DNA of 56,673 nucleotides from a virus (IMGVR_UViG_3300036794_000060:1-56673), one strand, 5' to 3'. Positions 14,259-42,687 are shown, counted from the stretch's first letter. Translations and numbers: made by a program. Notes: generated by a model from the letters alone, not told the origin.

Positions 14259-14927
14259 TTAAATTACCCCGAAGTTCAACAGAGGTCCCTTACCGAACAC
14301 CACGGCGTGACATCTACAGTGCGGATGGACCGCGCCGGGGATTTCCCCATCCGGCGGGTTATCCGCCGTGAACAAACGACCTTCCAACACCGCGCAACGC
14401 GCCTCCACCTTGCTGTCCCCGGCGGTACGCCACACCAACACGTTGTCACCGAGGTCGTCGACCTTTTTCGCGGCGCGACGCCGGTTTTGACCCGCCTGGA
14501 CATGCATCTTCAAATAGAGGGTTTCCCGGTCCATCGCCGAATCGAAATCTTCCGCCGCGGTCAAACGTCGCGCCGCCGCCAGGACGTACATGGCGCGCAT
14601 CCGGGGTTCCTCAGCCGCCACCCGCCGAACCACAGTGGACGCCAGAACGGGTGAACCGCCTTTAGTTCTCCCCGACAAAGATTTAACCGTGGCCATCGAC
14701 CCAACGCGTTCCGCCGCGTTACGGGTGATGCCTAGCTGCATCAACATGGAAATCAGACGCGGCGGGAGCTGGTCGGCTTCGATAGCGTCTCTAGACCCGA
14801 ACCATGCCGTCAACGCTGCCAACACCGCGGCTTGTGAAGCTTGCTGGTCGACAGCCTTCAACAATTGTCGCATCGTGACGGATTTAGCTTTCGCCAACGC
14901 CACCAACGCGCGCGTGCTAGAATTCAT
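14259..14927 (-). CDS. MuF-like minor head protein
   Basis: WRTAGDSKV..RC..LEG and C-terminal HPHCRC motif; follows the portal. Confidence 0.75.
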   Translation of the reverse strand: MNSSTRALVALAKAKSVTMRQLLKAVDQQASQAAVLAALTAWFGSRDAIEADQLPPRLISMLMQLGITRNAAERVGSMATVKSLSGRTKGGSPVLASTVVRRVAAEEPRMRAMYVLAAARRLTAAEDFDSAMDRETLYLKMHVQAGQNRRRAAKKVDDLGDNVLVWRTAGDSKVEARCAVLEGRLFTADNPPDGEIPGAVHPHCRCHAVVFGKGPLLNFGVI

Positions 14928-17900
14928 CGTCCAATGTGAACAACACTTTGCAGGCGTCCACATCCCCATCCGCCGCTAACCTGTTAGCTGCCTCGGCCAC
15001 AACAGGCGAGTAGGCTTTGAAGGTGAACCCGGACCATTCTTTACCGGTTTTCACCGACGCCTGGACACACGAGAGGAAAGCTTTCCTCTCCGCGACTTTA
15101 GAAATCTTTTGAACAGACTGGTCACGTGACTCGCCGCTGACCGAAGCGTCAACGGCGGGACGGTAACCTTGCGCCGGTTCACCAGGCCGATTACCCGATT
15201 CAGGCTTATTCTGTTGCGCAGATGGAAGGTTACCCGGCATCCCAACCGGTTGAACGTTCGGGTTAAAGAACGCCGGACCCGTTGGAGTTGCGATGAAAGG
15301 CTCGTTAGCTTGTTCAATGCTGTACCGTGGAAGGTTGAGTCTGTCACGCATCTCGTTCAACACCATCCCACCGTTGTTCACATACCCCTCAAGAAGAGTG
15401 GCTTCCTTCTGTTCGTCTTCGTCGTCGATGCCGTGGAATTGGAAAGTGACCTCAGGTGGCATACCGAGATAGTTTCGGCAAATCTCGTTGATCACATCGA
15501 TCAGCCACTTAGTTCGAGGCTTAGTACCCCTCGCCAACTGGGAATCCTGCTCACCCTGCTGGTGACCGGCACCACCCATACCACCCATACCGTGATTAGG
15601 AGTGAACCCCAACGATGTTGGCAACACATCGAAAGATGCGCAAATCAACCTGACAATGTGAAGGTCAAGGTCGGATTGGAATTTAGCCTCAAAACCCGCC
15701 GGATAGGATGGTTCGAAACCCGCCGGTAGGAACCGCGCGCGGTGCCTTTCCGCGGTTCTCCCGGAAAGGTCGTCGTTGAAAATCGCCTCATACTGTCTGA
15801 GTTGTTCCGGAGTCATCGCCATATCAACTTTCACGATCATCTCCGGCGTCACACCAGCCGAATACTCACTACGCAACCAGTCGAACCGTTTCAACCACAA
15901 ATCGACATCTGCCAACGACCGCTCAACATTCGAAAACCCGTACGGAGAACTCGTCCGACAATTCCTGACCTTATAGATCAACTGGTCCGTCGGAGACGTA
16001 TCCGGTGGGGGTTTCCCGTAGATCACACTCACAAATTCGTGATCCACCAACTCCGGAGGAGTCGGCTGTTGATACTCCCCCCGAGGGAACCCGTAACGGA
16101 TCTGCTGATAAGCAGGAAATGGTGGCTGCGGAGTCGCACCACGAATATCCAACAAAGGTTTGATAGTGTTCCCACACCAAGCCGCTTTCCCGTGACGTCG
16201 CACGTACAGCACCTCGTTAGGGACACTGACGCAGAACACCTCACCGTCGTAAGCGACAGGATCGACCGACCATGTGCGGTACTCGGTGTGAGACAACGCA
16301 ACCGTGTATTTGCGTCGCTTGTTTTCCGCCTTGATAACTCGACCATTCAGGGTAGTGTCCGAGTCGGAATCGTCGTATCGGACGCTCGCTGAGAAACCCA
16401 CCTTCTGCGCGACTTCTTGCAGATCGTCAGCCATCCGCAAGCTGGAAGTACTGATGGTTTCCGTCGGACCGTAATGTCCATCCCCAAGCATGTAGAACCG
16501 CCAAAAGATAGCCAACTGGCGAGCCGACATATTCTTAACCAGCTCCGGCACATACTTCTCGTGCGCCTTGCCGAACGGCTTCAAATAGTCGTGTAAGACC
16601 TTCCGGCCGATCACAAAGTTAGTCCCGGTGTGACACACGCTGCGATCGAAGATGTGTTCCAATAGATCGCGGAACGGCTCGAAACCCTTCGACTTCGGAG
16701 CTTGCGTAATGAACACTTGGTCGCCGTTGCTGACGCAACCCTCAGATAGATACATTCCCATGAACGCGGCGAAATCATCACCGGAACACTCGAACGACTT
16801 CGAATTTGTACGACCGTTCCCGACCAACTCGAATCGTTCGAGGTCGGACGCATCCCAGTGAGATGTCATCGGGATGCGTCGACCTTGACCACCTCGTCCC
16901 AATGCGGCCAGCTCGGCTGCCGTGACGATGGACTCACCTTGTCGATGACGTGAGCCACCGAGAGCACGCGGCAACCCTTCAATGACCATTCGATGGTTAG
17001 GGGTTACCAACAAGTCCAGAGATCGAGAATGGAAATGGCATAGATCACCCGTGAATGGAGCGCGGTGATAGTAGGTTGCCGGTTGCCACTCAAATGACTT
17101 GGTTTTCTGGTTCCGAGTAGCGAACTCGTCGATGGCAACATCTACCTGCGAGAACGAAAGCCATCCGCGCCGTGTCAAAACTTCCGTATCACCCGAATAA
17201 CATGTAGAGTCGATAATTTCGATAGAGTGGAGGTCGCCACTCAACGCGAAATGCGGATACAAAGAAACCGCATCCAACACCAACTCATCCTCCAATAGCA
17301 TGGTGAGCCATTGGACGAATGTGAGTTGGTTGATGCGGTCTGGTTTCATCCACCACTGATGGAGATGATCAATGTCATCCGCATATTTATCCTGCAAATC
17401 AGAAATCACTTCGTGGCTGGAGGTGTCGGCTCGTTTCGCCAAAGCACGCGCCTTAGCTGTATCGATCCCGAACGACCAATCCAACCCGGTGATAGCAGAA
17501 ATACACGTATCAATACAGGCGCGCATAATGGAAACTTCGTTCGCCGCATCCCGCAACACAGTCCACGGCACCGCGCGAGTGGTGGTCGTTTGGAGGTTCC
17601 ACGACGTTAGATAGTTCCGCAACTGCGGAGGCTGACGACCCGTCGAAGGAATAACCGGCGCGATCGGCGCCGGATACAAACTTTCCCCCGGACCGAACGG
17701 ATACATATTGTTCGGGTCCCGCGGCAAAGACGCAGAACCACTAATCCGTGGCGACCCATTCATCTGCAAACTCGCCAAATACCCAGAAGTGATCTCCTGG
17801 GTAGTCGCACCCCTCGGCAAAGCCAACGCTTTAGCGAGTTCTTTCTGCACTTCTTCCTGAACGACCCGGCGATAACCCGCAAGCCGAGCCGGCCTTGGTG

Positions 17901-17928
17901 TCACCCGGGTAGGACGCCTAATAGGCAT
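14917..17928 (-). CDS. Portal protein containing an intein
   Basis: Directly after TerL; portal-like segments (SPYGFSNVE, ICASFDVLPTSLG, LNEMRDRLNLP) interrupted by a Hint/LAGLIDADG insert. Confidence 0.9.
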   Translation of the reverse strand: MPIRRPTRVTPRPARLAGYRRVVQEEVQKELAKALALPRGATTQEITSGYLASLQMNGSPRISGSASLPRDPNNMYPFGPGESLYPAPIAPVIPSTGRQPPQLRNYLTSWNLQTTTTRAVPWTVLRDAANEVSIMRACIDTCISAITGLDWSFGIDTAKARALAKRADTSSHEVISDLQDKYADDIDHLHQWWMKPDRINQLTFVQWLTMLLEDELVLDAVSLYPHFALSGDLHSIEIIDSTCYSGDTEVLTRRGWLSFSQVDVAIDEFATRNQKTKSFEWQPATYYHRAPFTGDLCHFHSRSLDLLVTPNHRMVIEGLPRALGGSRHRQGESIVTAAELAALGRGGQGRRIPMTSHWDASDLERFELVGNGRTNSKSFECSGDDFAAFMGMYLSEGCVSNGDQVFITQAPKSKGFEPFRDLLEHIFDRSVCHTGTNFVIGRKVLHDYLKPFGKAHEKYVPELVKNMSARQLAIFWRFYMLGDGHYGPTETISTSSLRMADDLQEVAQKVGFSASVRYDDSDSDTTLNGRVIKAENKRRKYTVALSHTEYRTWSVDPVAYDGEVFCVSVPNEVLYVRRHGKAAWCGNTIKPLLDIRGATPQPPFPAYQQIRYGFPRGEYQQPTPPELVDHEFVSVIYGKPPPDTSPTDQLIYKVRNCRTSSPYGFSNVERSLADVDLWLKRFDWLRSEYSAGVTPEMIVKVDMAMTPEQLRQYEAIFNDDLSGRTAERHRARFLPAGFEPSYPAGFEAKFQSDLDLHIVRLICASFDVLPTSLGFTPNHGMGGMGGAGHQQGEQDSQLARGTKPRTKWLIDVINEICRNYLGMPPEVTFQFHGIDDEDEQKEATLLEGYVNNGGMVLNEMRDRLNLPRYSIEQANEPFIATPTGPAFFNPNVQPVGMPGNLPSAQQNKPESGNRPGEPAQGYRPAVDASVSGESRDQSVQKISKVAERKAFLSCVQASVKTGKEWSGFTFKAYSPVVAEAANRLAADGDVDACKVLFTLDDEF
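16168..17202 (-). mobile_element. Intein (345 aa) with LAGLIDADG homing endonuclease
   Basis: Block A CYSGDTEVLTRRGW; block B LLVTPNHRM; FMGMYLSEG and FYMLGDG motifs; ends VFCVSVPNEVLYVRRHGKAAWCGN followed by Thr+1. Confidence 0.92.
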
Positions 17929-17942
17929 ACAACCACCCTCTA

Positions 17943-19367
17943 TTATGCCGCCACCAACAAAGGCGCATGGCAAACAACGCACGACGTGGAACTTTTAGGA
18001 TTCGGCGTCTCACAATAATTACACAAATTAGACATCGCCGACAACCAAATCGCCGCCGTCGCACCCATATTCAACTCAGTAGCAGCCCACACCATCGCAT
18101 CCAAATTGTCCGGAGACTCCTTAGAATCAGGTGTGAACAAACACATCTGATCCTCCAACTTAGGTAGAGTCTTGTAGATGTGGCCGCGTTCCTGCTCCCA
18201 CAACGCAGAAATAGGTTCCGCACGAACCAACTTCCCCCTAGTAGCGCGAACAGTCTTATACGCAACATTAGAATCAATCGACCGGATCACAGTCTCGATG
18301 TAATCTCCACCGTTGTTGACCTCGCCGACAATTCGGTCGGCATGCCACCTGTGGTAGGCGTTCACCGCGGTCGCCATACACGCCTGCGGGGTGCCTTTCA
18401 TCGTACAATCCTCAAGAATGTACAAATGGCCATCATGGCTTCTACCGGCAACCACAATCCCCGTGAAGTCGGCTTTTTCGCCGGAAGTCACGGCCGGGTC
18501 GACACCGACAACGATCCGGGACATTGGTGGCAACACATGTACACGAGTGTTAGCGATCAGATCGTGATTCCACAGAGCGCCTTGAATGTCCTCAAGCAGC
18601 TCACCTTCGAGTTCTTGGAGACCGATCCTCGTCCCGGCATAGATCGCTTTGAGTTCGTCGAGAGCTGTTTTGGAGAGGTTGGCGGCGTTGTCCCACGTTT
18701 TCCCGCGGGTGATAGCGACAGAATCATTATCCCTACCGATGAGATCACGCAAAAAGCCGATCGGACGCGGCGTAGTGGTAATCAGGACTCTAGGGTTTTG
18801 GCCGATACGCAACGCCGGCATCAGCGCCTCGGAAAACATGTCATCGACGCGGTCCATCACCGCGGCCTCGTCAACCCACGCTCCGGCTAGGTTCGATCCT
18901 CTGAGTCTTTCGTATCCGTCGGAAGAGTAGCCGTAAACCCTGCTGCCATTATTTAAACGCACCGTCAAATCGGATGCGTTCATACTTTCAAGCTCCCCGG
19001 GAAGGAACGCTTTCAACAAACCTGAGGGTCCTTCGATGCAAACTTTCCGGCAGTCACGCCAGGTGGGAGCGACGATAGCCCACTCAGTTCCGGGGTTCCG
19101 TACGGCTTGTTCGGCGATCCACTCGGCGCCGGTCCGCGTCTTCCCGAACCCTCTCCCGGCCAAGATCAACCAAATATTCCAGATACCCTCCGGAGGTAGC
19201 TGTTCCGGACGAGCTAAATCGTGCCAGGGTCGTGGTCTGTCGGATACTTTTGTGGCGATTAGACGTTCGAGCGCTTCATTCCTGGCTTGTAGTCGTTTCA
19301 GCATTTCCAGCTGGTCAAGGCCGGCTTCGACTAGCTCAGGGTTCTCGTCGCGCAATGGAACCCCCAT
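17943..19367 (-). CDS. terL: Terminase large subunit
   Basis: Walker A AGRGFGKT, Walker B AWVDEAA, ITTTP motif, nuclease VGVDPA and DNLDA; C-terminal CxxC...CxxC. Confidence 0.95.
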   Translation of the reverse strand: MGVPLRDENPELVEAGLDQLEMLKRLQARNEALERLIATKVSDRPRPWHDLARPEQLPPEGIWNIWLILAGRGFGKTRTGAEWIAEQAVRNPGTEWAIVAPTWRDCRKVCIEGPSGLLKAFLPGELESMNASDLTVRLNNGSRVYGYSSDGYERLRGSNLAGAWVDEAAVMDRVDDMFSEALMPALRIGQNPRVLITTTPRPIGFLRDLIGRDNDSVAITRGKTWDNAANLSKTALDELKAIYAGTRIGLQELEGELLEDIQGALWNHDLIANTRVHVLPPMSRIVVGVDPAVTSGEKADFTGIVVAGRSHDGHLYILEDCTMKGTPQACMATAVNAYHRWHADRIVGEVNNGGDYIETVIRSIDSNVAYKTVRATRGKLVRAEPISALWEQERGHIYKTLPKLEDQMCLFTPDSKESPDNLDAMVWAATELNMGATAAIWLSAMSNLCNYCETPNPKSSTSCVVCHAPLLVAA

Positions 19368-25150: not shown

Positions 25151-25174
25151 GTCCGACGACAAGCATGGTACACT
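25151..25174 (+). promoter_or_regulatory. Promoter for a leaderless transcript
   Basis: GTCCGACG-N8-GG-TACACT followed by 6 nt and the ATG at 25181. Confidence 0.6.
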
Positions 25175-25618: not shown

Positions 25619-25654
25619 AAGAATTTGACAGCACACACATTAGCTTGACGATGT

Positions 25655-26002
25655 GTGCGATACACCTGCAAAACATGTAAACGGCCTGACGCGACCGCTA
25701 AGCCTCAACGACCCTGTCCCCAATGTGAGAGAGCGGCCAAGGCTCGCCAGAAGCTCTACGACCAAATGGCGGCCAAACAGAGGCATCTCTGCGCCATCTG
25801 CGGCAAGACCAACCCTGGCAGTCGTCGACTCCACATCGACCACTGCCACACAACCAACAAGACCCGAGACCTCCTATGCGGCAACTGCAACCGCGGACTC
25901 GGATACGCCAAAGACAACCCCAACACCCTCCGAGCAGCAGCCTGCTACCTCAGAAAACACAGGACTGCCGCTACGCTCACGACAAATCCTCAAGTGGCGT
26001 GA
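25655..26002 (+). CDS. Endonuclease VII-family protein
   Basis: CAICG...LHIDHCHTT...LLCGNCNRGLG. Confidence 0.85.
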   Translation: MRYTCKTCKRPDATAKPQRPCPQCERAAKARQKLYDQMAAKQRHLCAICGKTNPGSRRLHIDHCHTTNKTRDLLCGNCNRGLGYAKDNPNTLRAAACYLRKHRTAATLTTNPQVA

Positions 26003-26540
26003 ACAAGGAGACTCTTACGGCACCATCGCCAAACGCCTCGACATCAGCCGCCAACGCGCCACCCAACTCTGGGAACAAGCGCAAACCGCTGAACCAGCCA
26101 GGTGCCGATGCGGCGCCACCATCCCCCTCAACACCAAGGGAGGACGACCAAAAACCTACTGCCGACCCGAACACCGACCCAGCCAAAAAACAACACCACC
26201 CAAGCGATGTTCATGCGGAACAGCACTCACCGACCGACGCAAAAACTACTGCGGACCCGAACACGCACCACTACGACAGCACGCCAAACGCACAGGACTA
26301 TCCAAACAACAGTACAATCAGATGGCCGAACACCAAAACAACCTCTGCGCCATCTGCCAGCAACCCGAAACCGCGACTCTCAACGGGAAAATTAAACGCC
26401 TAGCCGTCGACCACAACCACACCACAAACCAAACCAGAGAACTACTCTGCAACAACTGCAACAGCATGCTAGGCTACTACAACGACAACCCAGAACTACT
26501 CGAAAAAGCCGCCAACTACCTCGAAAAACACGCCGTCTAG
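25965..26540 (+). CDS. HTH + Zn-knuckle + endonuclease VII domain (start uncertain)
   Basis: SYGTIAKRLDISRQRATQL HTH; CAICQQ...LAVDHNHTT...LLCNNCNSMLG. Confidence 0.75.
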   Translation: MPLRSRQILKWREQGDSYGTIAKRLDISRQRATQLWEQAQTAEPARCRCGATIPLNTKGGRPKTYCRPEHRPSQKTTPPKRCSCGTALTDRRKNYCGPEHAPLRQHAKRTGLSKQQYNQMAEHQNNLCAICQQPETATLNGKIKRLAVDHNHTTNQTRELLCNNCNSMLGYYNDNPELLEKAANYLEKHAV

Positions 26541-26629
26541 ACAAATTTTGAAACGTACGCCTACACCAAAAAATACGGACAATCCGTAACCCTTGCCCTG
26601 TTATATCGTATATCTGATCATGAGGGGGG

Positions 26630-26668
26630 ATCGTTTCGTTAGCTAACGACATCGTTTCGTTAGCTAAC
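26630..26668. repeat. 18-bp direct repeat x2 containing palindrome GTTAGCTAAC
   Basis: ATCGTTTCGTTAGCTAAC at 26630 and 26651. Confidence 0.9.
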
Positions 26669-26776
26669 CGAATGGGTAGGGTAGCCTAACCCATCACCCG
26701 TTCAGAGCAGTTCACCCACATGGGGTAACCCGTTCGGCCTAACCCGAAGTTCACCCGATCGGACTAGCATTCGATC

Positions 26777-26804
26777 TTGCTTCCGACGTCTGGCGTGGTA
26801 GACT
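26777..26804 (+). promoter_or_regulatory. Conserved phage promoter copy
   Basis: TCCGACGTCTGGCGTGG-TAGACT; near-identical to copies at 32266 and 36422. Confidence 0.75.
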
Positions 26805-26810
26805 TGACCT

Positions 26811-27222
26811 AGATCGGAAAGAGGGCAAGGGCCGCGGGGGCCGCGCGGGACGCGCGCGGTGAGCGGCATGATCCACAGTCGACGGATGATCAAGGAGGTC
26901 ATCCACAAGATCAACCTCACGGTCCTTTTGGACCGGCGACTCCAGAAAGGCCGCGAGGCACTGACGGAGTTGATCTACGCCCAAGTAATGGGTCCTTGAT
27001 CATCGGGAGATGATCTTGGATCGTCGGAACCCGCGACCCCGCGTGGTAACGGCAGCCGGAGAGGTCGGACCGGTTGCAGGTCCCGTGTAAAGATCATCGG
27101 CGATTGCGCCGCTGAGAGTCCGGTCCAGCCAGAAAGCGTAGATCATCTTCGGGGATCAGTGTTGAGCCGCAAACTCGTTGGAGTCGAGATCAAGATCATC
27201 AAGAATTTGAGGTTTGATGATC
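26811..27222 (+). ncRNA. Candidate large structured ncRNA or 5' leader
   Basis: No credible ORF; follows a promoter; nested long-range helices 26910-19/27208-18, 26937-44/27179-86, 26958-64/27156-62, 26971-80/27136-45, 27067-73/27120-26. Confidence 0.6.
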
Positions 27223-27799: not shown

Positions 27800-30700
27800 A
27801 TGACTGCACCGTTTGCTGCGCCTGAGCCGTTTGCTGCTGATTTGTTGGCTGAGATGCGTGGTTGGATTAGTGATTGTGTGTGGGGTGATTTGACGCCTTC
27901 GCAGATTAAGCGTATGTCTACGGCGCGGGTGGTTGATGGTGTTAGGCGGCATTATTCGGGTGGGGTGAGTCAGTTTGTGTCGGACTTTTACCAGTTTGGC
28001 CCGGAACCGTATTACCAGTGATTCGGTAGGTAGGTGAGCGCGTGTTCGTTGGTTTGAGCGCGCGTTGACTGGTTTACCGGATGGCAGTCAGAGAAAGGTC
28101 ATACGATGTATGCAGTGAAGATGATCACGGTCAAGCAGGATCGGTTTATTCGTTCGTTGCTCGATGGCAGGGTGGTTTCTCCGGCTGTTCGTTTGTGGAT
28201 TGAGCGGCGGATCACGGACATGTCGTCTAGGGACGCCAGTAAGGCGATAGGGGTCCTGTTGGCTTGTCCGGTGGTTGAGGTACCGACCACCCCCGATACG
28301 GCTGTCAGCGTGGCTGTCAGTCCCGGGAGTGAGGTTATCGAGCCCGGTATCTACGAACGGGATGGTTCGGTGTATCAGGTGGTTCGGTCTAAGACGTCTG
28401 GTTTTTTGTACGGGAAGGTGCTGACGCCTACCGGGTCGACTCGTTTGACTGAGGCGGGTACGGTGATTGACGCGAAATACGAGTATTTTGGTGTCGTTCC
28501 GTTCCTGCGTGCTGCGGATAGGGTGTCTGCTGAGCGTGCGCAGGAATTGTCCACTGTCCACGGTTATTGTGTGGTTTGTGGTCGCCGTTTGGACGCTGGC
28601 GATAGTGTTGCGGCCGGTATTGGTCCGGTATGCGCCGGTAAGGTTTAGCTCGCGGAATGGTCGTCAGGCTGACCCACCCGTTAGGGGTGGGTCGCCGAAT
28701 GGTTTTTCCGAGAGAAAAGAGAAAGACAATGACGGATGAACAGTTCATCGAAAAGTTGTATGCAGAGACACGCGCATTGACCGCGGGTGTCGACACCCGT
28801 AAAGGTGAATCGGTGGACACGTCACAGCTACGAGAGGGTGACTTGATTCTCAACTACCATACGGTGGAATGATCCACGGGGACACCGTGACGGGTGAATG
28901 GGATATCGCGTTCCCGAACATTCGTTCCGCGGCTAGCTTCGCTGATGTCATGCTGGCGGATGACGAATTCGCGTATCCGTTTCTCATCTCGGCGAAACTA
29001 CGCGACCCGGTCACCGATCTGAACCATTGGTGTGTGTTGACGGTTGTGTTGAACCCGCTTGCCGCTAATTTGAAACCTGTTATCTGACGCGCAAACGACG
29101 CTACCGCTAGTCGGTAGCGTCTGGTGAGTGCCAGACACAAGGGAAGGATCACCATGATTACGCAATTCACCTACACCCTACCTCCGGAGAAATTGCGGGT
29201 AGGGGACATGTTCGTCAGTGATCATTCGATCATCACCGAGGTTTGGCATGATCCCGAGGGTGTATGGGTAGATACGGATAACTTCGATTCCGGTTACCTA
29301 ATGGGTAAATCGTATCGGGTTATCCGCGAATTCATCGATTAGTCCGGTTGACTACGGGGGTTGACATCCAATTGGGATGTTTTCCTCCGCGGCTTACCGG
29401 CCGAACCGAGAGAGGATAGGGACAATGGGTTACAGCGACGTTGACGCTGGTGAAGTCGTCGGCACTGACATTGTTGACGTTACCGCGCGTGGTGGGAGTC
29501 GTCGGCAGCGTGGTTCGGCGATTGCCGCGTACGTTCGGACGCATCCGCAGCTCGAACGGGTACATATCAGCTACAGCGAGACTTACGGATTCCAGACTGC
29601 CACCTACGCGCGTTATCGCAAGGTGTGACTGTTTGTGTGGTGAATGTCCTAGCTTCCCCCGAAAAATTGGAGGCTAGGTACTTGACGACACAAGGAGGAG
29701 AAAGTGAACGTATCGAGTATCGCCGCTCAGATCATCGTCAAGGCTAAAGAACGTCAGGCTGAGCGGGTGGAACAGGAGGAGACGAACGGACCGTACGACT
29801 GGTCTAATATGGACTCTCTCCGCGAATACATCGCCGTACTCAAATCTGCCGTGTTCACCGAATCAGTGAACACTGTATACGTGACCGTCGCCGATACGTG
29901 GCACGGTCGTTTGTGGAGCTGGTCTGGCGCGGAAATGTTGGATGTTGCGTCCCAAGGTTTCAACCTACCGGAGACGGTACGTATTGAGGAGTGCTCACCG
30001 ACTACTCACGCGCTTGTGTGGTGACTGTTTGTGTGTGGTGAACCTCTGATATCCCCCGCGAAAAATTGTGGGGGATATCAGGGATTGAACACACAGAAAT
30101 CGAGGAAGGAATGAGTGGTTTACGCGTTCAACGTAAATGCCGTGAGACCGGTCATCTAGTTGGCCTCTATGACGGTATCACCGAGGGTATGGATATCGAC
30201 GCTGGTCGCTGGCAGACGGTCTGCGAGGAACACGGCTGGATAATCTCGCATGAGAAATATTCGACCGCGTTATCGTGGCTGTCACATCCGCTAGAATGGT
30301 GTGACGAGTGTCAACGGGAGAAAGGTTTACTTGAATGGACGTAGTTATAGGTTACAGTCCATTTGCTGACGTATCTGTTGTATTGGGTCCGTTTCGTTCG
30401 CCGGAGACAACTTTAGCGGCAACGGAACATTTACAACACTGCGGATACGCGACGGAAGTATGTCCCCTGCTGAGAATAGAGGATGTAGTACCAATCACCG
30501 GCGCCGAGGATGACGACTGACCGTTAGGTGTACTGCGGCCACTCAACTAGTGTGAGTGGTTAGCGGTAACCGAACGACCAACACAGAAAGAGAGAGTCAT
30601 GATGACAATCGTAAAACTCACCGCGGACGACGCTGGATGCTACGTTGACGGACACTTGGGACAGTACGGGGTGGCGCACATGGTTCAGCGCGCGGAATGG

Positions 30701-32207
30701 TGGGGATATTCCGACGCGGAGGTTATCGCGCTCGCCGATAAGCATCTGGCCAGCATGGGAGCATCCGACAGTGAGGAGTTGACCACCGACGAATACTGGA
30801 CGTTGAACGATGCGTCCGATGATGTTGAGCAGTGGTTGAATGACAACGTCGCACCCGAAGGGTACTCATTCGGATGGTTCGAGGGTGAGTTCTTTCTGTG
30901 GTCCGATGAGCAGTGGCAGGAAGACTAAGTTTTTGTGTGGTGAATCTGAATTCCCCCGCGAAATTTTCGGGGGAATTCGGGTTGAAAACACAAAACAGGA
31001 GAGGACAAAAACAATGGAGCTCCACGGACGCATCGCGCAAGAATCCACCGATGGAACACTCACGTTCAAACTGTCCAGGTTTGAACGTATGTTGATTTGT
31101 GACCGGCTGACAAGGGAGCCTAGCTACACGCTCGGTTTGGTTGATCGTTGGTTGTACGATGTTGCCAACGACCACACTGTTACCGTGTCTATTGTGGTGG
31201 ATACTACGGCACCGCATGAATGCATTTATTGTCCGGCGGGTGCGCATCCAATCAATGAGAAATGTCCACGTTGAGTGTCGCTTGTATGGTCGCTGACTTA
31301 CCTCAGCGGCTGTACTGGATACACCCACAATTGGAGGAGCTGTGAAGCAGGTAGAGGGTATTACCGTCCGCACAAACCATGTCCCCCGCGATTTAATCGA
31401 CGGGTGGGAGCTGACCGAGAAAGAACGCAAGGAATACGATCACTACGACTGGTCGGCGATCGATGAGGGTTCCGCATCGGCGACGTTTTTCCGTTACCGC
31501 GGGTGGACGTACGATTTGGGTAATTTCGAGCGGTTCGAGAAAACCGGCGAGGGACTGTCACAGTATTGGGACGGTCACGCGGCCGATTCGGTGTGGTCCG
31601 CGACGCTTATCAAGCTAGTAGAAGCTGACTACAACGAAAAGCGCGTGATCGTTGGTCGCGCGTGGTGGTAGTCCGGTTTGAACCATGGCGACACTCACAA
31701 TGTGAGTGTCTGCCACGGCTAACCGGCCGAATAACCGAGGGAAGCTGAGGAGAAAATGAGCAAGCGACGCTGTAACCGAGTGAGTAAGCGTAAGCCACCA
31801 CTACACAAACCAATTCCGGCGCCGATTCCACGTAAGCCGTTTATCGCGCTCACGTGGCCAACCGTCGGTGGCCGGAAACCGTCACCGTTGGTCGCAATGA
31901 TGGCCGTGATCAATCACGGTTCGGAATGTGAGGAGTGTGGAGCGGAAACCGGGGGAACACATGTTAATTTGTGTGTGGCCGCCGATCCCGGTTACGCCGA
32001 GTGGATTGCGGGTGAGTCGTGACGGATGCGGCTAGGTGGCTGATGGATATCGGTAGGCCACGATATGAAGCTAAAGCTTTCTCCGAGTATTGTGGGGATA
32101 ATTTTCCCGGCGAAAACTATGTGTACTGTCTCGACCAGTGGACGTGGGACCCCCGTAAGCCTGCCTACATGGCTCGCTACGCACCTGAAACGGTGGATGT
32201 GTACTAG
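27800..32207 (+). other. Array of small hypothetical genes with strong RBSs, mostly separated by long hairpins
   Basis: ORFs 27800-28021, 28729-28872, 28869-29087, 29154-29342, 29425-29628, 29704-30024, 30111-30344, 30335-30520, 30599-30928, 31014-31274, 31342-31671, 31756-32022, 32019-32207. Confidence 0.7.
28106..28648 (+). CDS. DUF6011-like Zn-finger protein
   Basis: C-terminal CVVCGRRLDAGDSVAAGIGPVC. Confidence 0.8.
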   Translation: MYAVKMITVKQDRFIRSLLDGRVVSPAVRLWIERRITDMSSRDASKAIGVLLACPVVEVPTTPDTAVSVAVSPGSEVIEPGIYERDGSVYQVVRSKTSGFLYGKVLTPTGSTRLTEAGTVIDAKYEYFGVVPFLRAADRVSAERAQELSTVHGYCVVCGRRLDAGDSVAAGIGPVCAGKV

Positions 32208-32258
32208 GGAGAGGGTGTGGTGTGTTCTGCCGCTCAGATTTGCTGTGAGACGTCGCAC

Positions 32259-32288
32259 TTGACTATCCGACGTCTGGCACGGTAGAGT
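32259..32288 (+). promoter_or_regulatory. Conserved phage promoter copy (SigA/HrdB type)
   Basis: TTGACT-N18-TAGAGT with TCCGACGTCTGGCACGG in the spacer; flanked by a 10-bp inverted repeat (32229-38/32288-97). Confidence 0.8.
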
Positions 32289-32335
32289 CTGAGCGGCTCA
32301 CAGACCACAAGGTCTCACCAGAAAGGAAAGATCAA

Positions 32336-33391
32336 ATGTCACGCGAAACCCTACAATGGCTCAACAACAACATCCTCGTTGGCAACACCGACAACCGCGG
32401 CAACGCCTGGTGGTACCGCGCATCAGAGAACAACGGCCGTAAAAACCACTTCCCCGGATTCGTCCCCGTGGAAGCCGTCCATGATCTATTCGACTTCAAC
32501 GTGTGCGAACGTCGCGTCGCGGTCGAAATTCCCGCCACCATGGACGACTTCACCCACATCGACGACGACGGCAACTTGTGGAAGTGGAGTCTCCAATTCG
32601 ACCGCAAAGCAATGGTCACCGACGACGACCACACCGTGTTGGGAATGTTCCGACCCGGCTATCAGGGACACGGCTACATCCCCTGGCTGGTGGATAACGT
32701 CGAATCGATCCTTGACCAAGATCTAGGTGTCTCCTCCGCGGGACTGCTCCGCAACCGCGCGGTTGCTTGGGTGGAAGTGTCCGTAGACGAGTCACTGTTC
32801 GGTATCGCGGACGTTCAGTTCCGGCCGAACCTGCTCGCCACCACGTCATTCGACGGAACCATCGCCACCACCTACAAGCGCACAATCCAGCTCACGGTGT
32901 GTGATAACACCCGTGAGATTGCGCTGGCCGAGGATGGCGCGACCCTGAAAGTTAAGCACTCCGCGAAGTCGCTGGGTCGCATGAGTGAGGCTCGCTCCGC
33001 GCTACAACTGGTGGAGCAGACCGCCGATGTGTTCCAAGCTGAACTAGAACGGGAAGTTACCACTAAGGTGACGCCAGTTCAGTTTAAGGAAGTGTTGAAC
33101 AGGATTGTTCCCATCGCCGAGGCTGGCCGTGGACGTACCACCGCGCTCAACAAGCAGGCCGAGATTATTCGTCTGTGGACGTCTGACCCACGTGTCGAAC
33201 CGTGGAAGGGTACCGCGTTCGGTGTCGCGCAAGCGTTCAACACGTGGCACCACCACATTCAGGGTGGGTTGTCCGTCAAGGGTGACAAGAACGCTCTGAG
33301 AGCTGAGCGGAACGCGTTCCGCGTCGTCCGCGGTGAGACCGCGAAGCTGGACGCCGAGGTACAGAAAGTGCTGGCTGACGTTCTCAAGTGA
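32336..33391 (+). CDS. DUF932-family phage/plasmid protein
   Basis: SAGLLRNRAVAWV, NLLATTSFDGT, TVCDNT, KVKHS, GTAFGVAQAFNTW motifs. Confidence 0.85.
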   Translation: MSRETLQWLNNNILVGNTDNRGNAWWYRASENNGRKNHFPGFVPVEAVHDLFDFNVCERRVAVEIPATMDDFTHIDDDGNLWKWSLQFDRKAMVTDDDHTVLGMFRPGYQGHGYIPWLVDNVESILDQDLGVSSAGLLRNRAVAWVEVSVDESLFGIADVQFRPNLLATTSFDGTIATTYKRTIQLTVCDNTREIALAEDGATLKVKHSAKSLGRMSEARSALQLVEQTADVFQAELEREVTTKVTPVQFKEVLNRIVPIAEAGRGRTTALNKQAEIIRLWTSDPRVEPWKGTAFGVAQAFNTWHHHIQGGLSVKGDKNALRAERNAFRVVRGETAKLDAEVQKVLADVLK

Positions 33392-33571
33392 TCTGGTTGA
33401 CCAGTGGTGGCGCATCCGCGGAGGGAAAGGCCGCGGATGTGTTGCCATGGCTTACCAGCCACGTAAGGAAACCAGGATGCAACCAGCGATACAGCACGAA
33501 TATGCGTCTCCGTCGCGTTTATCGTGTCGGCATTTTCGGCTGGCCAGTCATAGTGGGGTGACCATGCGCAT

Positions 33572-36377
33572 ATGACCACTGGAATCCCCGCCGAAGATAT
33601 GGTTAAAGCACTCACCATAGACGTAGAAGAATACGCACGTTGGGGAGCAGGAGAATGCTACGGCTACATTCTCGAACGTCAACCAGCCGATCCTCACCCG
33701 GATTGTCCCGCGCCACACTGCTCCGATGAATGGGAAGTGGTGGAGTCAGTGTGGGGACACATTGGTCTGGAGTACGCCGAGGAGACTGCGCGGGAAGCTC
33801 TCGCCGCGTGTGAGTAGTCCGGACGTCGAACGCAATGCCTACTCAAAGAAAGAAAAGGAAATGAATCATCTACAGCTCGCGTATTGGCGTGTCGTCTACC
33901 GACTCACCAGACGGAAGAGACAGATACAACGGAAAACACGTCGCACAACCCCTCCTGGCGCGTTGCCGTATCAGCGTCCCTGTCCGCATCGGCCGTATCA
34001 GTCGCTGCTTGATTTGGACGACTACGGCGGAGGGTGTGGGAAGTCCGGGTGATATGACCGAGGATCAGGGTTCTACCCTGGTCACTCGGCGGCCACCCGG
34101 CCGAAATTCGAGGAAGGGATTGATCATGAACACATGGCGAGGCTACGTCGGCCGTACTTCTGACGGTGACCGGCTCTGGCTAGAGATCGAACTGAGGGTT
34201 AAGTCTTCCCGCGGCTTCAAATCGATCACACACGACGAGATCGGCGACTACACCGAGCTATCGATCCAGGGGGGTGGCCTCTACAAGGGTCACCGCACCG
34301 GGAGAGACACCGACTTCGGTGGCCAATGTGTTGACTTTCTCCGCAACGTCACCCGACCGGAGAAAGGATTCACAGTCGCCGAACTACAGCGCATCGCGGA
34401 CGTGTGGGTACGGTGGCATCTGAACGGCATGCGCGCCGGGTGCGCTCACCAGTCGCCAGTGTTGGCGCCGGATAAGTATGGAAATGTCGTCCCGTCGTTG
34501 GAGCTGACCCCGGCATGTCCGGAGACCGGCTACAAGTATGGACACGCGTGGCTGGTCGAGTCGCTGCCGGCCGACATTGAGACCGAGGTTCGCGCGTTCG
34601 CTGACCGTCTGGACGGAACCTACGCTTGCTGATCATCCGGTTACTCGTCACGTCTCGCACGTGGCGAGCTCTGGACCATCAGATACCGGAGGAAAGGATC
34701 ATGAGGAAAAACTGGGAAGACGAGTCGTCGGAGCGTGAGCTCTGCGGCGCGCTCAAAGACGCGCTGCGACCAGCCGAAGGTGAGACGACCGTCGACTTTT
34801 GCCGACGTCTCATCGTCGCCGGTCGGTTCGGCGCGTGGGACGACGGCCAGGGAGAGATGCTGCTCGACACGTTCTCCGCGTCGGCCGTGGTCGCGGTACA
34901 CGACGGACTGTCGGAAGCGGCGCGGCCTAAGCTGTTGGCGATGCCAATGGTCAAGGCGGTCGACGTGTGTTTCAACGTGATCAACAAAGCGAGAGGGAAG
35001 TGATGGGAGCCACCACCGTCATGTGCCAAGACTGTACAGGGTCCGGGAAGGACTACGTCAAACGTCAACTAGTCATTGACGGCGTGTCCACCACCAAAAC
35101 CGTGATCGAAGACTGTAAACGCTGCGGAGGGTCCGGCCGTGTGGTTGAGAACGAGAACCCCCCGAAGGATGGACGCTACAGGTAGGATGCCGGGATGGAC
35201 ACCACACGCGCGATACCCACCGGGATGCGGACCGAGTGTCACCGATGCAACGGTACCGGCGACATCGGCCGCCTCACCGCGGGAGCCGACCGCGACTACC
35301 TCATCACCATGATCACAATCCGAGAGTGTCCGACCTGCAAGGGAGTCGGCTGGATCAAAGGGTTTGTTCCGCCAGTGTAGTACCGGTTCGCAAGGTGAGG
35401 CCGTCTCGCTCGATGTGAGACGGCCTTCTCTATGGGAAAGGAAAGGCATGACAGCGTTCAAAGTCACCGTCACGATCAGCAACCAGGACTTTATCCATCT
35501 ATCAACTAGCAGAATGGGATGGTCCGCGCACAACTGGCGCGACCACCCATTCGAGACGTACGATCATGCGGGTGAGATCAACTGGGGATTCAAGTACGCC
35601 TACTTTTTCGACACAGCAGCGAACCTGATCCTAGCGCGGTCCTACCTTGAAGCGCTCGAACCTGAACATCAGGTGTTGTCAAACGAGAGTGTCAACGGTG
35701 GTTGGGTGATCATCACCGACTACGACTACAACGAGGAAAAGTAGATGACCCCCATGACACGCGCGCAAGCAGACTATCTGCTTGTTCTATGCAATAAGGT
35801 GAGCGGGGAAAGTTACGGCTACCTCGGTCCACATCGTGAGCTACTCGGCATCTCGTCGACTGGGATGCAGCGCATCACCAAGGGTCAAGCGTCTGCATTG
35901 ATCGACAAAATGAAGGCGCAAGCGGATGAAGTGTCATGAATGCGGCCGAGTGGAGTAACCGCTTAGACGATGAGCTGGCCACGTTCGTCGATGCGGGGGA
36001 GCAGGTGAGTCACGCCTACGCGAACGGCTCAGCGGCCGGCGTCTTAATTGACCTCTCAGCCGACGACGACTACGGCCGACGACTGTCCTCCTGGGACGGC
36101 AAAATGGGTGTCCGATTCAACGAACAGAAAGGTTGGTGCAAGCATGCTGGAGTGTATGAACGGTCCAGAAGGGTGTGAGGGTCCGACCGAGTATCGGATG
36201 GCTCTCTCGGCGACCGGGATTTCTTACCCGCGTTGTGAGGGTCACTGGGAGGAGCGGCTGCGGACTGAGGAGCGGCTCCGCCAGGACTACCCGGACTCGC
36301 CGACCCCTCCGAACTGGTTTGGTCCCACATATCCGGGTGGGATGAACGAGTGGGGAGAGCATTGGGACGAATATTGA
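33572..36377 (+). other. Further small hypothetical genes, including two DnaJ-like CxxCxGxG proteins
   Basis: ORFs 33572-33817, 33861-34052, 34126-34632, 34701-35003, 35003-35185 (CQDCTGSG..CKRCGGSG), 35195-35380 (CHRCNGTG..CPTCKGVG), 35448-35744, 35745-35939, 36144-36377. Confidence 0.7.
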
Positions 36378-36414
36378 TTTCGGGAGATAATCCGGAATCG
36401 TTACCTGTGTCCCC

Positions 36415-36444
36415 TAGACTGTCCGACGTCTGACACGGTAGCCT
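36415..36444 (+). promoter_or_regulatory. Conserved phage promoter copy
   Basis: TAGACT-N18-TAGCCT with TCCGACGTCTGACACGG. Confidence 0.75.
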
Positions 36445-36523
36445 GATCGTTGCGTCATCACCCCCACCTTCGAGTGGGGATGGTGACAGAGTGATCAGCT
36501 CTACACAAAGAAAGGAGTGAACA

Positions 36524-37612: not shown

Positions 37613-37667
37613 ACCAACCGTACCAACCTCCTGCACGTGTACCAACCTGATGCGCGTGTACCAACCT
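37613..37667 (+). repeat. Iteron-like direct repeats GTACCAACCT x3, 19-bp period
   Basis: Copies at 37620, 37639, 37658, right after the DUF3631 stop codon. Confidence 0.85.
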
Positions 37668-37678
37668 AAGGAGCATCG

Positions 37679-37921
37679 ATGAAAGAACGCACACGATGGG
37701 GAAGGGTCGACCAGACAGGGAAAATCACGCTCTGCCAGGTCGACCCACCCCGCAGCGAGATCGCGGCGCACCCGGAACTGTACGTGTGTCAAATGGTGCG
37801 CATCTATCCGTGGGTGGTCCCGCTCACTAACCGTGAGCAGGCGGGGAGACCGCGCTGTCACCACGGCGTCAAACTCGGCCAGTCATGTCCACTCTGCCGC
37901 AAGGAGGAATCATGTCCCTAG
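37679..37921 (+). CDS. Hypothetical protein
   Basis: AAGGAG RBS; 80 aa; C-terminal CHHG...CPLC. Confidence 0.6.
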   Translation: MKERTRWGRVDQTGKITLCQVDPPRSEIAAHPELYVCQMVRIYPWVVPLTNREQAGRPRCHHGVKLGQSCPLCRKEESCP

Positions 37922-38502
37922 AAACTGGACGTCTCCCGGCCATCTTCGGATACGCCAGATGCTCCACCAAGGAGCAGAACCTCGGGGACCAGATACGTCG
38001 GCTACACGCCGCCGGGTGTGTGTATGTTTTCAAAGACGAAGGTGTCTCCGGGATGAAGGCGTCCCGACCGGACTGGGATAGGTGTTTGGCGCATTTGGTC
38101 CCCGGCGATGTTTTGAAGGTCACCAAACTGGACCGTGCCGGTAGGTCGTTGCGTCACCTGTTGGAGCTGGTGGATGATCTGAACGAGAAAGGGGTGGGGT
38201 TTGCCACGCTCGATCAGCAGTTCGACACCACATCGGCGTCCGGGAAGATGATCTTCACGGTGATTGCGGCGTTCGCCGAATTCGAGAAAGCACTCAACCT
38301 CGAACGAACAATGGAAGGACTCCACACCGCATGGTCCAACGGTAAAAAGTCCGGTCAACCACCCAAGCTGACCCCGGAGAAAGAACAGTCCGTCCCGATC
38401 CTGTTCCGGGGTGGCCAGACGATCACCGCGATCGCACGATCGTTGGATGTTCACCAGGCCACCATCTACCGGACCCTACGGAAATTGGGAATCGAATACT
38501 AG
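37912..38502 (+). CDS. Small serine recombinase (resolvase/invertase) with C-terminal HTH
   Basis: GYARCST catalytic Ser, SRPDW, GDVLKVTKLDRAGRS, AFAEFEK..ERT.EGL, HTH ATIYR. Confidence 0.95.
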   Translation: MSLETGRLPAIFGYARCSTKEQNLGDQIRRLHAAGCVYVFKDEGVSGMKASRPDWDRCLAHLVPGDVLKVTKLDRAGRSLRHLLELVDDLNEKGVGFATLDQQFDTTSASGKMIFTVIAAFAEFEKALNLERTMEGLHTAWSNGKKSGQPPKLTPEKEQSVPILFRGGQTITAIARSLDVHQATIYRTLRKLGIEY

Positions 38503-42165: not shown

Positions 42166-42687
42166 TTAAACTTCAACTGAATTCTGCATCGAATCCAAAT
42201 ACTCCCACCGAACCTTGTTGAACCGTGCATCCGCCAACGCGTTGTGGTGGCCGTCAGTCTGGTCCGGCATCGATTTCACACCCAACTGATGCTGCCACTG
42301 CCGAAGGTCGTTCGTCCACATCGGCAACGGACCCGGCCACTGCATCATCGTCCCAAACAGCTGAGCCAACACAATATGGTCGTATGCTCCGTACCACGCC
42401 CACAGCTCCGGAGAATAACCGGACAATAGAGCAGCTCGGACTTCCCGCGCGATCTGGGAGCGAGGTTTCACCACCTCATCGTTGAGGTCGACACTCCCAT
42501 ACGGTGTGAGTGGCAGCCAGGGGACCACGTTGGCGTTTAGCCACTCGTGAGCGTAGATTTTCTCCCACGGCGCGTTTTTGTTCACGGCATAATATTCCCT
42601 GCCGTCCTCTGCGACCACTCCGATGCTAATCAGATCGATTGTAGTCCCCGTGTCGAGGAATTCCGTATCGTAGAAGAAGCGGGTCAT
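42166..42687 (-). CDS. DEDDh 3'-5' exoribonuclease (Rv2179c / RNase AS-like)
   Basis: FFYDTEF, LISIGVVAEDGREYYAV, WAWYGAYDHI, HNALADA. Confidence 0.92.
   Translation of the reverse strand: MTRFFYDTEFLDTGTTIDLISIGVVAEDGREYYAVNKNAPWEKIYAHEWLNANVVPWLPLTPYGSVDLNDEVVKPRSQIAREVRAALLSGYSPELWAWYGAYDHIVLAQLFGTMMQWPGPLPMWTNDLRQWQHQLGVKSMPDQTDGHHNALADARFNKVRWEYLDSMQNSVEV

Follow-up and report, generated by a model that had tools for sequence, protein, structure and literature searches.

In bacteriophage T7, an early precursor of about 7,000 nt is cut at five sites into mono- and dicistronic units, and the RNase III substrate R1.1 comprises 60 nt in the account given in PMC4858673. In the T4-type phages RB49 and phi1, hyperplastic regions of ORFan genes contain PeSL elements, in which a stem-loop and a Shine-Dalgarno sequence fill the space from stop to start codon. 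As described in PMC2839356, every PeSL carries a strong sigma-70-type promoter, some 100 bp of sequence are conserved from one element to the next, near-identical phages differ at these elements by insertions, deletions and replacements, and recombination between flanking elements gives rise to mini-circles. Among actinophages, the Cluster K mycobacteriophages have imperfect inverted repeats upstream of some non-structural gene starts, the ESAS, whose 17-bp repeat follows a genome-wide consensus, has a 4–13-bp spacer and is tied to the 13-bp SAS GGGATAGGAGCCC; PMC3203893 presents the role of SAS/ESAS as not established. REP sequences, of 20–40 bp, high in copy number, with GTAG or CGTC tags and linked to RAYT, are imperfect palindromes 3' of stop codons in operons, for which the description in PMC3733652 includes a proposed role as 3' decay barriers.

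The window analysed here, by which we mean the whole stretch of 56,673 nt, comes from an uncultured phage of actinobacterial type (CheckV completeness of the record, 67%), in which nearly every gap between small early genes consists of one long RNA-type hairpin. Genes and their starts were assigned by hand from open reading frames and ribosome-binding sites (RBSs), without a trained gene caller; a Pfam scan of 28 proteins from the array and its flanks gave matches above the cut-offs only for DUF6011, DUF932, DUF3631 and a resolvase. The relatives used for comparison are three metagenomic contigs that are near-identical to the window outside the array, R1 (...36783_000197), R2 (...36784_000119) and R3 (...36771_000052), giving a comparison of four genomes.

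We folded 18 gaps between 28.0 and 37.7 kb, each against 200 dinucleotide shuffles. In 17 of them the hairpin was more stable than the shuffles (z from -2.47 to -8.66), the exception being the gap at 33818–33860 (z +1.19). An earlier note on this DNA had counted about 14 gaps filled by a hairpin reaching from stop codon to RBS, which agrees with our finding of one dominant hairpin in 15 of the 16 gaps of at least 43 nt between 28.0 and 35.45 kb. These hairpins span 32–113 nt (median about 62), mostly have 16–31 pairs with internal mismatches, begin 0–6 nt past the stop codon and stop 8–28 nt short of the next start codon, the remainder being the purine-rich RBS. When the window and the three relatives were pooled, 51 gaps were reduced to 33 non-redundant ones, 27 of which fold at -19.6 kcal/mol or better. 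Across the four genomes, the first stem base lies -3 to +6 nt from the stop codon and the last 8–28 nt ahead of the start codon; most hairpins have 16–32 pairs, with up to 48 in promoter-bearing or composite gaps, and the six gaps lacking a hairpin are all short (42–67 nt, codons included). An ungapped scan of the 56.7-kb window for plus-strand hairpins of at least 19 pairs placed six out of eight within 28.0–36.5 kb, and the same scan of 42 other viral loci (520 kb) as a control returned 46 hairpins with both strands summed, with a maximum of three per strand per locus. The hairpins belong to at least five unrelated sequence classes. None matched Rfam, and a comparison of 17 gaps found no k-mers common to the hairpins beyond background except GAAAG-type RBS words, and no SAS-like motif beyond the generic RBS; compared with SAS/ESAS, the stems in the window are longer and their sequences are unconserved.

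All features lie on the plus strand. The promoter-like repeat P0, TCCGACGTCTGGCGTGGTAGACT (26782..26804), is the reference copy of the direct-repeat family D2 and is likely to be the start of a transcript covering 27.2–32.2 kb. H1 (28021..28082, z -4.13) lies 3' of a 73-aa gene (27800–28021), and H2 (28649..28714, z -5.75), which is kept in all three relatives, lies 3' of the DUF6011 gene (28106–28648). H3 (29089..29131) has a different upstream gene in R1, where its stem is lengthened by a self-complementary insertion, and a different downstream gene in R3. Folding and the relatives define H4 (29343..29411), with the left end TCCGGTTGA and the right end CTTACCGGCCGAA; it is present in three genomes, each time with another gene downstream. 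Three hairpins, H5 (29632..29694, z -5.55), H6 (30027..30100, 31 pairs, z -8.66) and H8 (30931..30995, z -6.40), are copies 1 to 3 of a covarying family, termed family A, and between the last two lies H7 (30522..30576, z -3.01), which is missing from R1 along with the genes at 30111–30520. H9 (31272..31327, z -2.53) has a related element in R2 (L012, 12988–13067), and H10 (31673..31726) persists in R2 as a conserved island, 98% identical over 63 nt, with unrelated genes on either side. The long H11 (32207..32319, 42 pairs), identified by folding and a promoter-like match, encloses the promoter-like site P1 (32259–32288; TTGACT, 18 nt, TAGAGT). H12 (33393..33458, z -5.36), 3' of the DUF932 gene (32336–33391), is present in three genomes with a different downstream gene in each. 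H13 (34058..34103), accompanied by a small second helix, recurs as a conserved island in both R1 and R2, and in R1 only a 15-codon ORF separates it from H14 (34636..34690, z -2.83). Beyond H15 (35387..35438, z -4.53), a composite gap (36378..36523, z -4.10) combines three helices with P2 (36417–36444), a promoter-like paralogue of P1.

The sequence TCCGACGTCTGGCRYGGTAGNNT occurs in three copies, at about 26.78, 32.27 and 36.42 kb, spaced by 5.5 and 4.2 kb, and only two of the 17 gaps (32208–32335 and 36378–36523) hold a promoter-like site. By a rule that asks for a T-run behind the stem, no gap hairpin qualifies as a terminator: the sequence 3' of the stems is the purine-rich RBS, and the 17 terminator-like sites of 26–39 kb all lie elsewhere. 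We rejected intrinsic terminators because of the missing U-rich tract and the purine-rich tails. The hairpins might still be leaky attenuators or terminators that do without a T-tract, each reducing read-through slightly, with a falling expression gradient and insulation of new genes as the result, much as the stem-loop of a T4-type PeSL might. They are GC-rich and lie immediately 3' of stop codons; PeSL stem-loops were strong terminators in a reporter as described in PMC2839356, and canonical terminators are rarer than expected in some actinobacteria according to PMC3993855, a source that also describes the U-tract as required by mycobacterial RNA polymerase, which argues against this reading. 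At least ten serial terminators behind one promoter would moreover silence distal genes, including the conserved DUF932 and DUF3631 genes. Usual terminator stems are also shorter than the 20–31 mismatched pairs seen here, and we consider attenuation unlikely.

The hairpins fold preferentially as the sense RNA. The sense fold is the more stable one in 15 of the 18 gaps, with a mean advantage of about 6 kcal/mol (-36.1 vs -15.0 kcal/mol for H1, which has nine G-U pairs, and -34.1 vs -22.6 kcal/mol for H15); 95 coding windows from this region gave a difference of 1.3 kcal/mol with sense better in 61%, a control that covers only partly the G>C and T>A skew of the region, which alone favours plus-strand folding. 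Over the 18 gaps, G-U pairs number 57 in the sense folds vs 26 in the antisense folds. The antisense fold is more stable at three gaps, 29088, 31672 (the gap of H10) and 33818. The claim of the earlier note that the hairpins covary was upheld in family A: among its nine copies, 93.5% of cells pair vs 85.6% in shuffles, a level reached by none of the 500 shuffles, and five pairs have both-sided changes, on the basis of eight distinct sequences in three paralogue groups. Between orthologues, only two both-sided pair changes were found, and stem substitutions comprise 17 pair-keeping vs 18 pair-breaking ones, many of the latter in weak outer helices; the pair-keeping single changes mostly exchange a Watson-Crick pair for a G-U pair or the reverse. 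The structure of the hairpins is conserved and their sequence is not.

Each genome has three copies of family A, whose outer arms are invariant while their inner stems vary, and several hairpins share ends of the CCGGTT...ACCGGCCGAA type, features that would suit selfish palindromic repeats, REP- or MITE-like, which multiplied into the gaps between genes and are simply tolerated. However, the record lacks a Y1 (RAYT-type) transposase (PF01797), a covariance-model search for family A over 110 kb returned the nine known copies and no others, and the multiplicity of unrelated sequence classes, the exact stop-to-RBS placement in 27 of the 33 gaps and the strand bias all disfavour such an origin, which seems to us very improbable. 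A REP/RAYT system was rejected on the absent PF01797 and the three copies per genome; unlike REPs, the window elements are low in copy number and reside in a phage genome.

Placement could point to translational control, in which stable structure beside stop codon and RBS uncouples or tunes the translation of neighbouring cistrons, or blocks Rho loading in the gaps. The stems begin at most 6 nt from the stop codon, so that a terminating ribosome must open them, and in gaps such as 29629–29703 and 34633–34700 the 3' arm reaches into the beginning of the RBS. The small genes upstream join their cistrons differently, by the ATGA overlaps that had been noticed before: in 19.4–24.4 kb, nine of the 18 called junctions overlap by 4–8 nt and three more have gaps of 0–8 nt. 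Nevertheless, the RBS is free in most gaps, an RBS-sequestering design is not conserved, and such a role would not need long stems. We regard translational control as quite improbable.

The array shows dense mosaicism across the three relatives. Of 30 unique breakpoints, 17 fall at hairpin edges (P about 2e-11), and of the 18 breakpoints within gaps only one interrupts a hairpin body, vs 54% expected by length (P 1.7e-5). Four hairpins persist despite differing genes on either side, and hairpin-only islands of 85–98% identity stand between unrelated flanks at H6 (R1 and R2), H10 (R2) and H13 (R1 and R2); H6, found in all four genomes, is flanked by three upstream and four downstream gene families. 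Neither reordering of shared gene families nor shuffling between paralogous hairpins was found in the four genomes. The earlier note had proposed to look for gain, loss or reordering of genes exactly at hairpin borders and had counted plain termination together with a fixed gene order and no processing ends in the stems against its proposal. Gain, loss and replacement do occur at the borders, the order of shared families is fixed, and none of the gap hairpins has the T-tract of a plain terminator. The islands and the edge breakpoints might suggest that the hairpins are DNA linkers, patches of 60–90 bp of homology through which general or phage-encoded homologous recombination between co-infecting relatives swaps the genes enclosed by two shared hairpins, for which the modular shuffling of PeSLs described in PMC2839356 is a precedent, here without a promoter in each element. 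Yet the hairpin-free block at 19.4–24.2 kb has 3.1 breakpoints per kb vs 3.6 in the array, with seven of its 15 breakpoints in gene-junction zones; because this block is about equally mosaic, hairpins are unnecessary for gene exchange. A role in duplex DNA also leaves the G-U strand bias unexplained, and the comparison covers four genomes that are near-identical outside the array. A function as linkers alone is, in our estimation, decidedly unlikely.

A serine recombinase of 196 aa (37912..38502; Resolvase and HTH_7, Pfam 1.3e-40; PHROG 'DNA invertase') had been placed at the end of the block by the earlier note; it is present, but about 1.4 kb past the last hairpin gap rather than directly adjacent, and its DNA is about 98% identical in R1. 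Small resolvase/invertase-type recombinases act on double-stranded sites, and we judged this one to stand outside the hairpin system. In an integron-like arrangement, the hairpins would play the part of folded attC-type sites at which the nearby recombinase excises each gene as a circle. The likeness to integron cassettes is apparent in the unit of RBS, gene and 3' imperfect palindrome, in a one-directional array of genes mostly without a promoter of their own, in the borders as places of gene gain and loss, and in the adjoining recombinase gene. Nonetheless, that enzyme is not a tyrosine recombinase of the IntI type, for which PF00589 had no match in the 56.7-kb record (67% complete) and matched in 14 of 14 control genomes. 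The attC consensus is RYYYAAC...GTTRRRY; no core or inverse-core motif is common to the hairpins across the 17 gaps, and their ends, CCGGTT...AACCGG or GTGGTGAA...TTGAACAC, are unlike that consensus. With neither a tyrosine integrase nor a shared core site, with no reordering, and with a strand bias that fits RNA, we rejected the integron/attC mechanism, and the integron-like reading as a whole appears extremely improbable.

The explanation that we favour, although we hold its chances to be about even, is that the gap hairpins are sense-strand intercistronic RNA elements of long polycistronic transcripts. Judged from the sequence, they probably serve for RNase III-type processing or as barriers to decay, and they are conserved as intact joints. 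Between the two branches offered by the earlier note, RNA processing in what might be a host-takeover or anti-defence module and recombination sites, the former seems to fit best in strand bias, hairpin length, absence of a T-tract and promoter spacing, whereas the latter does not hold as an integron/attC mechanism. From the computed structures, placement, strand bias, covariation, missing T-tract and breakpoint pattern, we infer that three promoters drive transcription, that the RNA is cleaved or stabilised, and which enzyme would act on it. Two or three polycistronic transcripts would start at the promoter-like sites near 26.78, 32.27 and 36.42 kb, and the hairpins would act post-transcriptionally on the sense strand as double-stranded substrates of an assumed host RNase III, as barriers to 3'-to-5' decay, or as both; the window record (67% complete) contains no RNase III gene. 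REP and similar intergenic palindromes have been proposed to stabilise upstream mRNA. An exonuclease barrier would not need 20–30 pairs. As in the early region of T7, the transcript might be split into stable pieces that each hold one to four genes. Since the hairpin spans the distance from the stop codon to the following RBS, both flanking cistrons would be spared wherever in the stem the RNA was cut or an exonuclease halted. Gain, loss and replacement of genes at the stop/hairpin and hairpin/RBS borders could follow from selection on hairpins as whole units, and such selection, with exchange at the borders, would give them the appearance of fixed joints between cassettes in an array.

What the window shares with T7 is the intercistronic hairpin, some 60 nt in size and roughly two helical turns long (mostly 16–31 pairs here), interrupted by mismatches and set within an early polycistronic transcript of several kb, which is putative in the window phage. 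With about 15 in 8.5 kb, the hairpins here stand closer together than the five T7 sites in about 7 kb reported in PMC4858673. The host is of actinobacterial type, cleavage is predicted, the hairpins lack sequence similarity to the T7 sites, and the gene content between them turns over among close relatives. Like PeSLs as described in PMC2839356, the elements fill the stop-to-start space in a hyperplastic region and coincide with gene exchange between near-identical phages, but promoters are few and the hairpins fall into several unrelated classes instead of sharing one conserved sequence. We think a dual role rather unlikely: at the RNA level, the hairpins would cut and stabilise the units of a long transcript so that an inserted piece of RBS and gene is expressed, and at the DNA level, the same joints of 60–90 bp would serve as homology patches for gene exchange between co-infecting relatives. 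If true, this dual role would represent a structural counterpart, needing no recombinase, of integrons and the T4 PeSLs, by which promoter-less cassettes in the early region of an actinophage might take up a new RBS-gene insert that is expressed while its neighbours remain undisturbed.

Between 27.8 and 38.5 kb we called 29 plus-strand genes by hand from ORFs and ribosome-binding sites (RBS), with the gene starts likewise assigned by hand, and these calls leave 18 gaps longer than 40 nt. Each gap was folded from stop to start codon and compared with 200 dinucleotide shuffles. One dominant hairpin was present in 17 of the 18 gaps, with z-scores from −2.47 to −8.66, the sole exception being the gap at 33818–33860 (z +1.19). 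An earlier note had described hairpin-filled gaps from the sequence, and 15 of the 16 gaps in its range indeed contain a hairpin, with spans of 32–113 nt; the contrast it drew with overlapping genes further upstream also holds, as 9 of 18 called junctions at 19.4–24.4 kb overlap, by 4–8 nt. When the window was combined with three related IMG/VR metagenomic contigs (R1, ...36783_000197; R2, ...36784_000119; and R3, ...36771_000052), 27 of 33 non-redundant gaps folded at −19.6 kcal/mol or better. Across these four genomes most hairpins have 16–32 pairs, with up to 48 in promoter-bearing or composite gaps. Relative to the stop codon the stem begins at −3 to +6 nt, and its end lies 8–28 nt upstream of the start codon, thereby leaving the RBS alone free; a function in translational tuning for stems placed in this way seems quite improbable. 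Six of the eight longest plus-strand hairpins of the whole window lie within 28.0–36.5 kb, and a comparison scan of 42 unrelated viral loci (520 kb) returned 46 hairpins on both strands, with a maximum of three per strand per locus. Sliding MFE windows of 70 nt gave too much noise to place the hairpins, as did hairpin scans with G-U pairs allowed and a low threshold.

The window spans an entire IMG/VR virus record, linear, of 56,673 bp and with a CheckV completeness of 67%. Its minus strand at 0.3–19.4 kb carries terminase, portal, and an ORF of tape-measure size, and the small plus-strand genes start at 19.4 kb. The DUF932 protein (32336–33391) shares 38–44% identity with proteins from phages of Rhodococcus, Gordonia, and Microbacterium, and the window also encodes an Rpf-type transglycosylase and LysM protein; on these features it was treated as an actinophage. 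A scan of genome contigs returned DUF932 genes at only 44–45% identity, in Actinomadura and Streptosporangium, so the host was not identified by that scan. The array DNA had no match among 50,697 phage records by megablast or blastn, and metagenome contigs scanned with a protein pattern from the DUF932 alignment yielded no relative. A TerL scan gave 45 loci, with one new closer relative (L149, 73% identity), whose contig reaches only 1.9 kb from TerL and does not include the array side. In Rhodococcus phage REQ1, the phage with the best DUF932 match, 2 of 20 junctions around the DUF932 gene exceed 25 nt, as counted from the annotation. Separately, the portal-like ORF at 14917–17982 on the minus strand (1021 aa) has a weak Phage_portal match at residues 639–883 and a LAGLIDADG_3 match at residues 490–557; the portal gene may be interrupted by an intein or a homing-endonuclease insertion.

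None of the gap hairpins passes a terminator rule that requires a T-run after the stem, their tails being the purine-rich RBS. They might act as attenuators lacking a T-tract, a reading that we consider unlikely; the mycobacterial polymerase is described as needing a U-tract (PMC3993855). Rfam searches with E-values up to 1 left the hairpins unmatched, with two chance hits below threshold. The k-mers common to the gaps were RBS words and otherwise did not exceed random windows, so the gaps have no common protein-binding or crossover core. That the hairpins are integron-like sites is scarcely credible. Genes for a tyrosine recombinase, a Y1 transposase, and RNase III are all absent from the record at its 67% completeness. 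The recombinase at 37912–38502 is a 196-aa protein of the resolvase/invertase type, and hairpins as sites of this serine recombinase were rejected for want of a common site. A promoter in every gap was rejected too, as the gaps share no −10/−35 pattern.

The sense strand gives the more stable fold in 15 of the 18 gaps, with a mean advantage of about 6 kcal/mol over the antisense strand, and the antisense fold is the more stable in three; for 95 control coding windows from the same region, the advantage was 1.3 kcal/mol and the sense strand was better in 61%. G-U pairs number 57 in the sense folds versus 26 in the antisense folds, and a local skew of G over C and T over A accounts for part of the sense bias. 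One hairpin repeat family, family A, occurs at 29632, 30027, and 30931 in the window and six more times in the relatives, with invariant outer arms and an inner stem that is complementary but particular to each copy. In the alignment of these few sequences, 93.5% of cells pair versus 85.6% in shuffles (0/500), and both sides have changed in five pairs. Selfish repeats are a very improbable explanation; a family A covariance model searched against 110 kb found the nine known copies only. A loose family A pattern matched at least 120 stretches of metagenome contigs and was too unspecific: among the matches listed, none of 122 loci (L013–L134) was related to the window, the one exception being the DUF932 gene on L013, a locus contributed by the scan of genome contigs, and a match in the 176-kb viral contig L007 was dismissed as due to chance. 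Between orthologues, changes were found at 35 of 788 paired sites and 51 of 424 unpaired sites, the latter count being inflated by non-homologous ends. Among the 35 stem changes, 17 keep the pair, mostly as switches between Watson-Crick and G-U pairs, and 18 break it, clustering in weak outer helices. Taken together, the strand bias, the covariation, and the orthologue changes provide moderate evidence for selection on the sense-strand RNA fold.

The chance that the hairpins act post-transcriptionally, as processing signals, decay barriers, or both, is in our judgement about even. The stem, a mismatched helix of about two turns, has the stop codon directly beyond its 5′ base and the RBS directly beyond its 3′ base, so that a cut or stall anywhere within it would leave both cistrons intact. 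Within such a post-transcriptional role, RNase III specifically would be a tentative candidate. In T7, an early precursor of about 7,000 nt is described as cut at five sites, with an R1.1 substrate of 60 nt (PMC4858673); the hairpin layout agrees with the T7 arrangement. The same genome as this array of 3′ hairpins also contains an ORF with an Rv2179c-like 3′–5′ exoribonuclease domain (42166–42687, minus strand; E 1.2e-11).

The three relatives are 92–99% identical to the window in the flanks, R3 ending inside the array, and all the evidence is drawn from these four very close genomes. Inside the array, unrelated and conserved blocks alternate, and protein clustering reveals a colinear backbone with shared genes separated by differing inserted genes. 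Merging 44 alignment ends gave 30 unique breakpoints: six at the edge between stop codon and hairpin, 11 at the edge between hairpin and RBS, seven at gene junctions without a hairpin, five inside genes, and one within a hairpin body, where it lies 3 nt into a weak outer helix. The edge zones account for 8.4% of the region and show a breakpoint excess (P ~2e-11); hairpin bodies occupy 54% of gap length, yet hold 1 of the 18 gap breakpoints (P 1.7e-5). The earlier idea of shuffleable cassettes survives in part, as genes are gained and lost at hairpin borders (17 of 30 breakpoints), but the shared families are not reordered. Neighbours vary on both sides at four hairpins; the hairpin at 30027 has three upstream and four downstream gene families as alternative neighbours, and in R3 an additional 66-codon gene lies between it and the following RBS. 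Where the window has a 168-aa gene between two hairpins, R1 has only a 15-codon ORF, and the hairpin-less gap (33818–33860) arose through insertion of a gene that separates the outer left arm of the 34058 hairpin from its remainder. Hairpin-only islands at 30027, 31673, and 34058 keep a role as DNA linkers possible, improbable as we consider it.

Other features were observed in the same stretch. Relative to R3, a deletion specific to the window has removed about 380 nt (28850–28872) without respecting a hairpin border; a 113-aa gene lost its end and the following gene its start, one hairpin gap went too, and two short overlapping ORFs remain. A 62-nt stretch (33515–33576) is inverted in R2 (L012 15659–15720) at 90% identity. 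Adjacent 60-aa proteins (35003–35185 and 35195–35380), kept in R1 and R2, have two CxxCxGxG motifs each, with DnaJ_CXXCXGXG and Anti-TRAP matches below the Pfam cut-offs.

The hairpin-free block at 19.4–24.2 kb contains 15 unique breakpoints, or 3.1 per kb versus 3.6 per kb in the array; on rough gene calls, seven of them fall in junction zones (P 0.012), plus three near misses. Junction preference is higher in the array (24 of 30), with about equal event density. Because breakpoint density is similar in the hairpin-free block, exchange does not need hairpins. The simplest account is frequent recombination across the small-gene region, with selection retaining products in which genes and hairpins are whole.

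A 23-nt promoter-like repeat, TCCGACGTCTGGCRYGGTAGNNT, occurs at 26782–26804, 32266–32288, and 36422–36444, with a weaker copy at 25152–25174. The copy at 32266 has TTGACT, 18 nt, and TAGAGT, and every copy is embedded in an inverted repeat; the copies probably serve as phage promoters that are co-regulated through an operator. If they are promoters, the array would be read as two transcripts, some 5.4 and 4.2 kb long, whose roughly ten and five internal hairpins would mark off units of one to four genes. Ahead of the copy at 26782, 464 nt of non-coding sequence (26404–26867) with a doubled palindromic CGTTTCGTTAGCTAAC unit at 26629–26677 may be a regulatory region or origin. The plus-strand ORF at 25653–26540 has an Endonuclease VII domain and HTH, with an internal 45-nt direct repeat (family D10) at 25757 and 26313. 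In the gap at 37613–37678, upstream of an 80-aa gene and the serine recombinase, three to four direct GTACCAACCT copies about 19–20 nt apart may be binding sites.

We would place the array among already known kinds of element, as a variant whose function we infer from sequence. The nearest cassette analogue is the promoter-early stem-loop (PeSL) of T4-type phages, reported as a promoter, stem-loop, and SD between ORFans, with RB49 versus phi1 indels mapping to PeSLs and mini-circles forming (PMC2839356); here, however, a promoter-like site occurs in just 2 of the 17 gaps, and the elements do not form a single sequence family. Among actinophages the closest analogue is the extended start-associated sequence (ESAS) of Cluster K, described as an inverted repeat with a 17-bp consensus and no assigned function that is linked to a 13-bp SAS (PMC3203893), but neither consensus is present in the window. 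A limited search of the literature on actinophage intergenic hairpins found no description of such an array, and one on phiC31 conserved inverted repeats returned nothing relevant.

Should the hairpins serve as processing or stability signals, they would offer a portable rule for expressing large numbers of unrelated genes from a single promoter in actinobacteria, of use to those who engineer operons in Mycobacterium, Corynebacterium, Rhodococcus, and Streptomyces. Should they guide exchange as well, the PeSL idea would reach from T4-type phages of Proteobacteria to siphovirus-like actinophages. Phage early regions rich in small ORFans, where host-takeover and anti-defence genes are found, turn over fast. 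In four near-identical genomes, about 3.6 exchange breakpoints per kb spare a structured element at nearly every junction, and even if the structure is merely tolerated, this would be a clean case of RNA-element selection shaping where mosaic joints survive.
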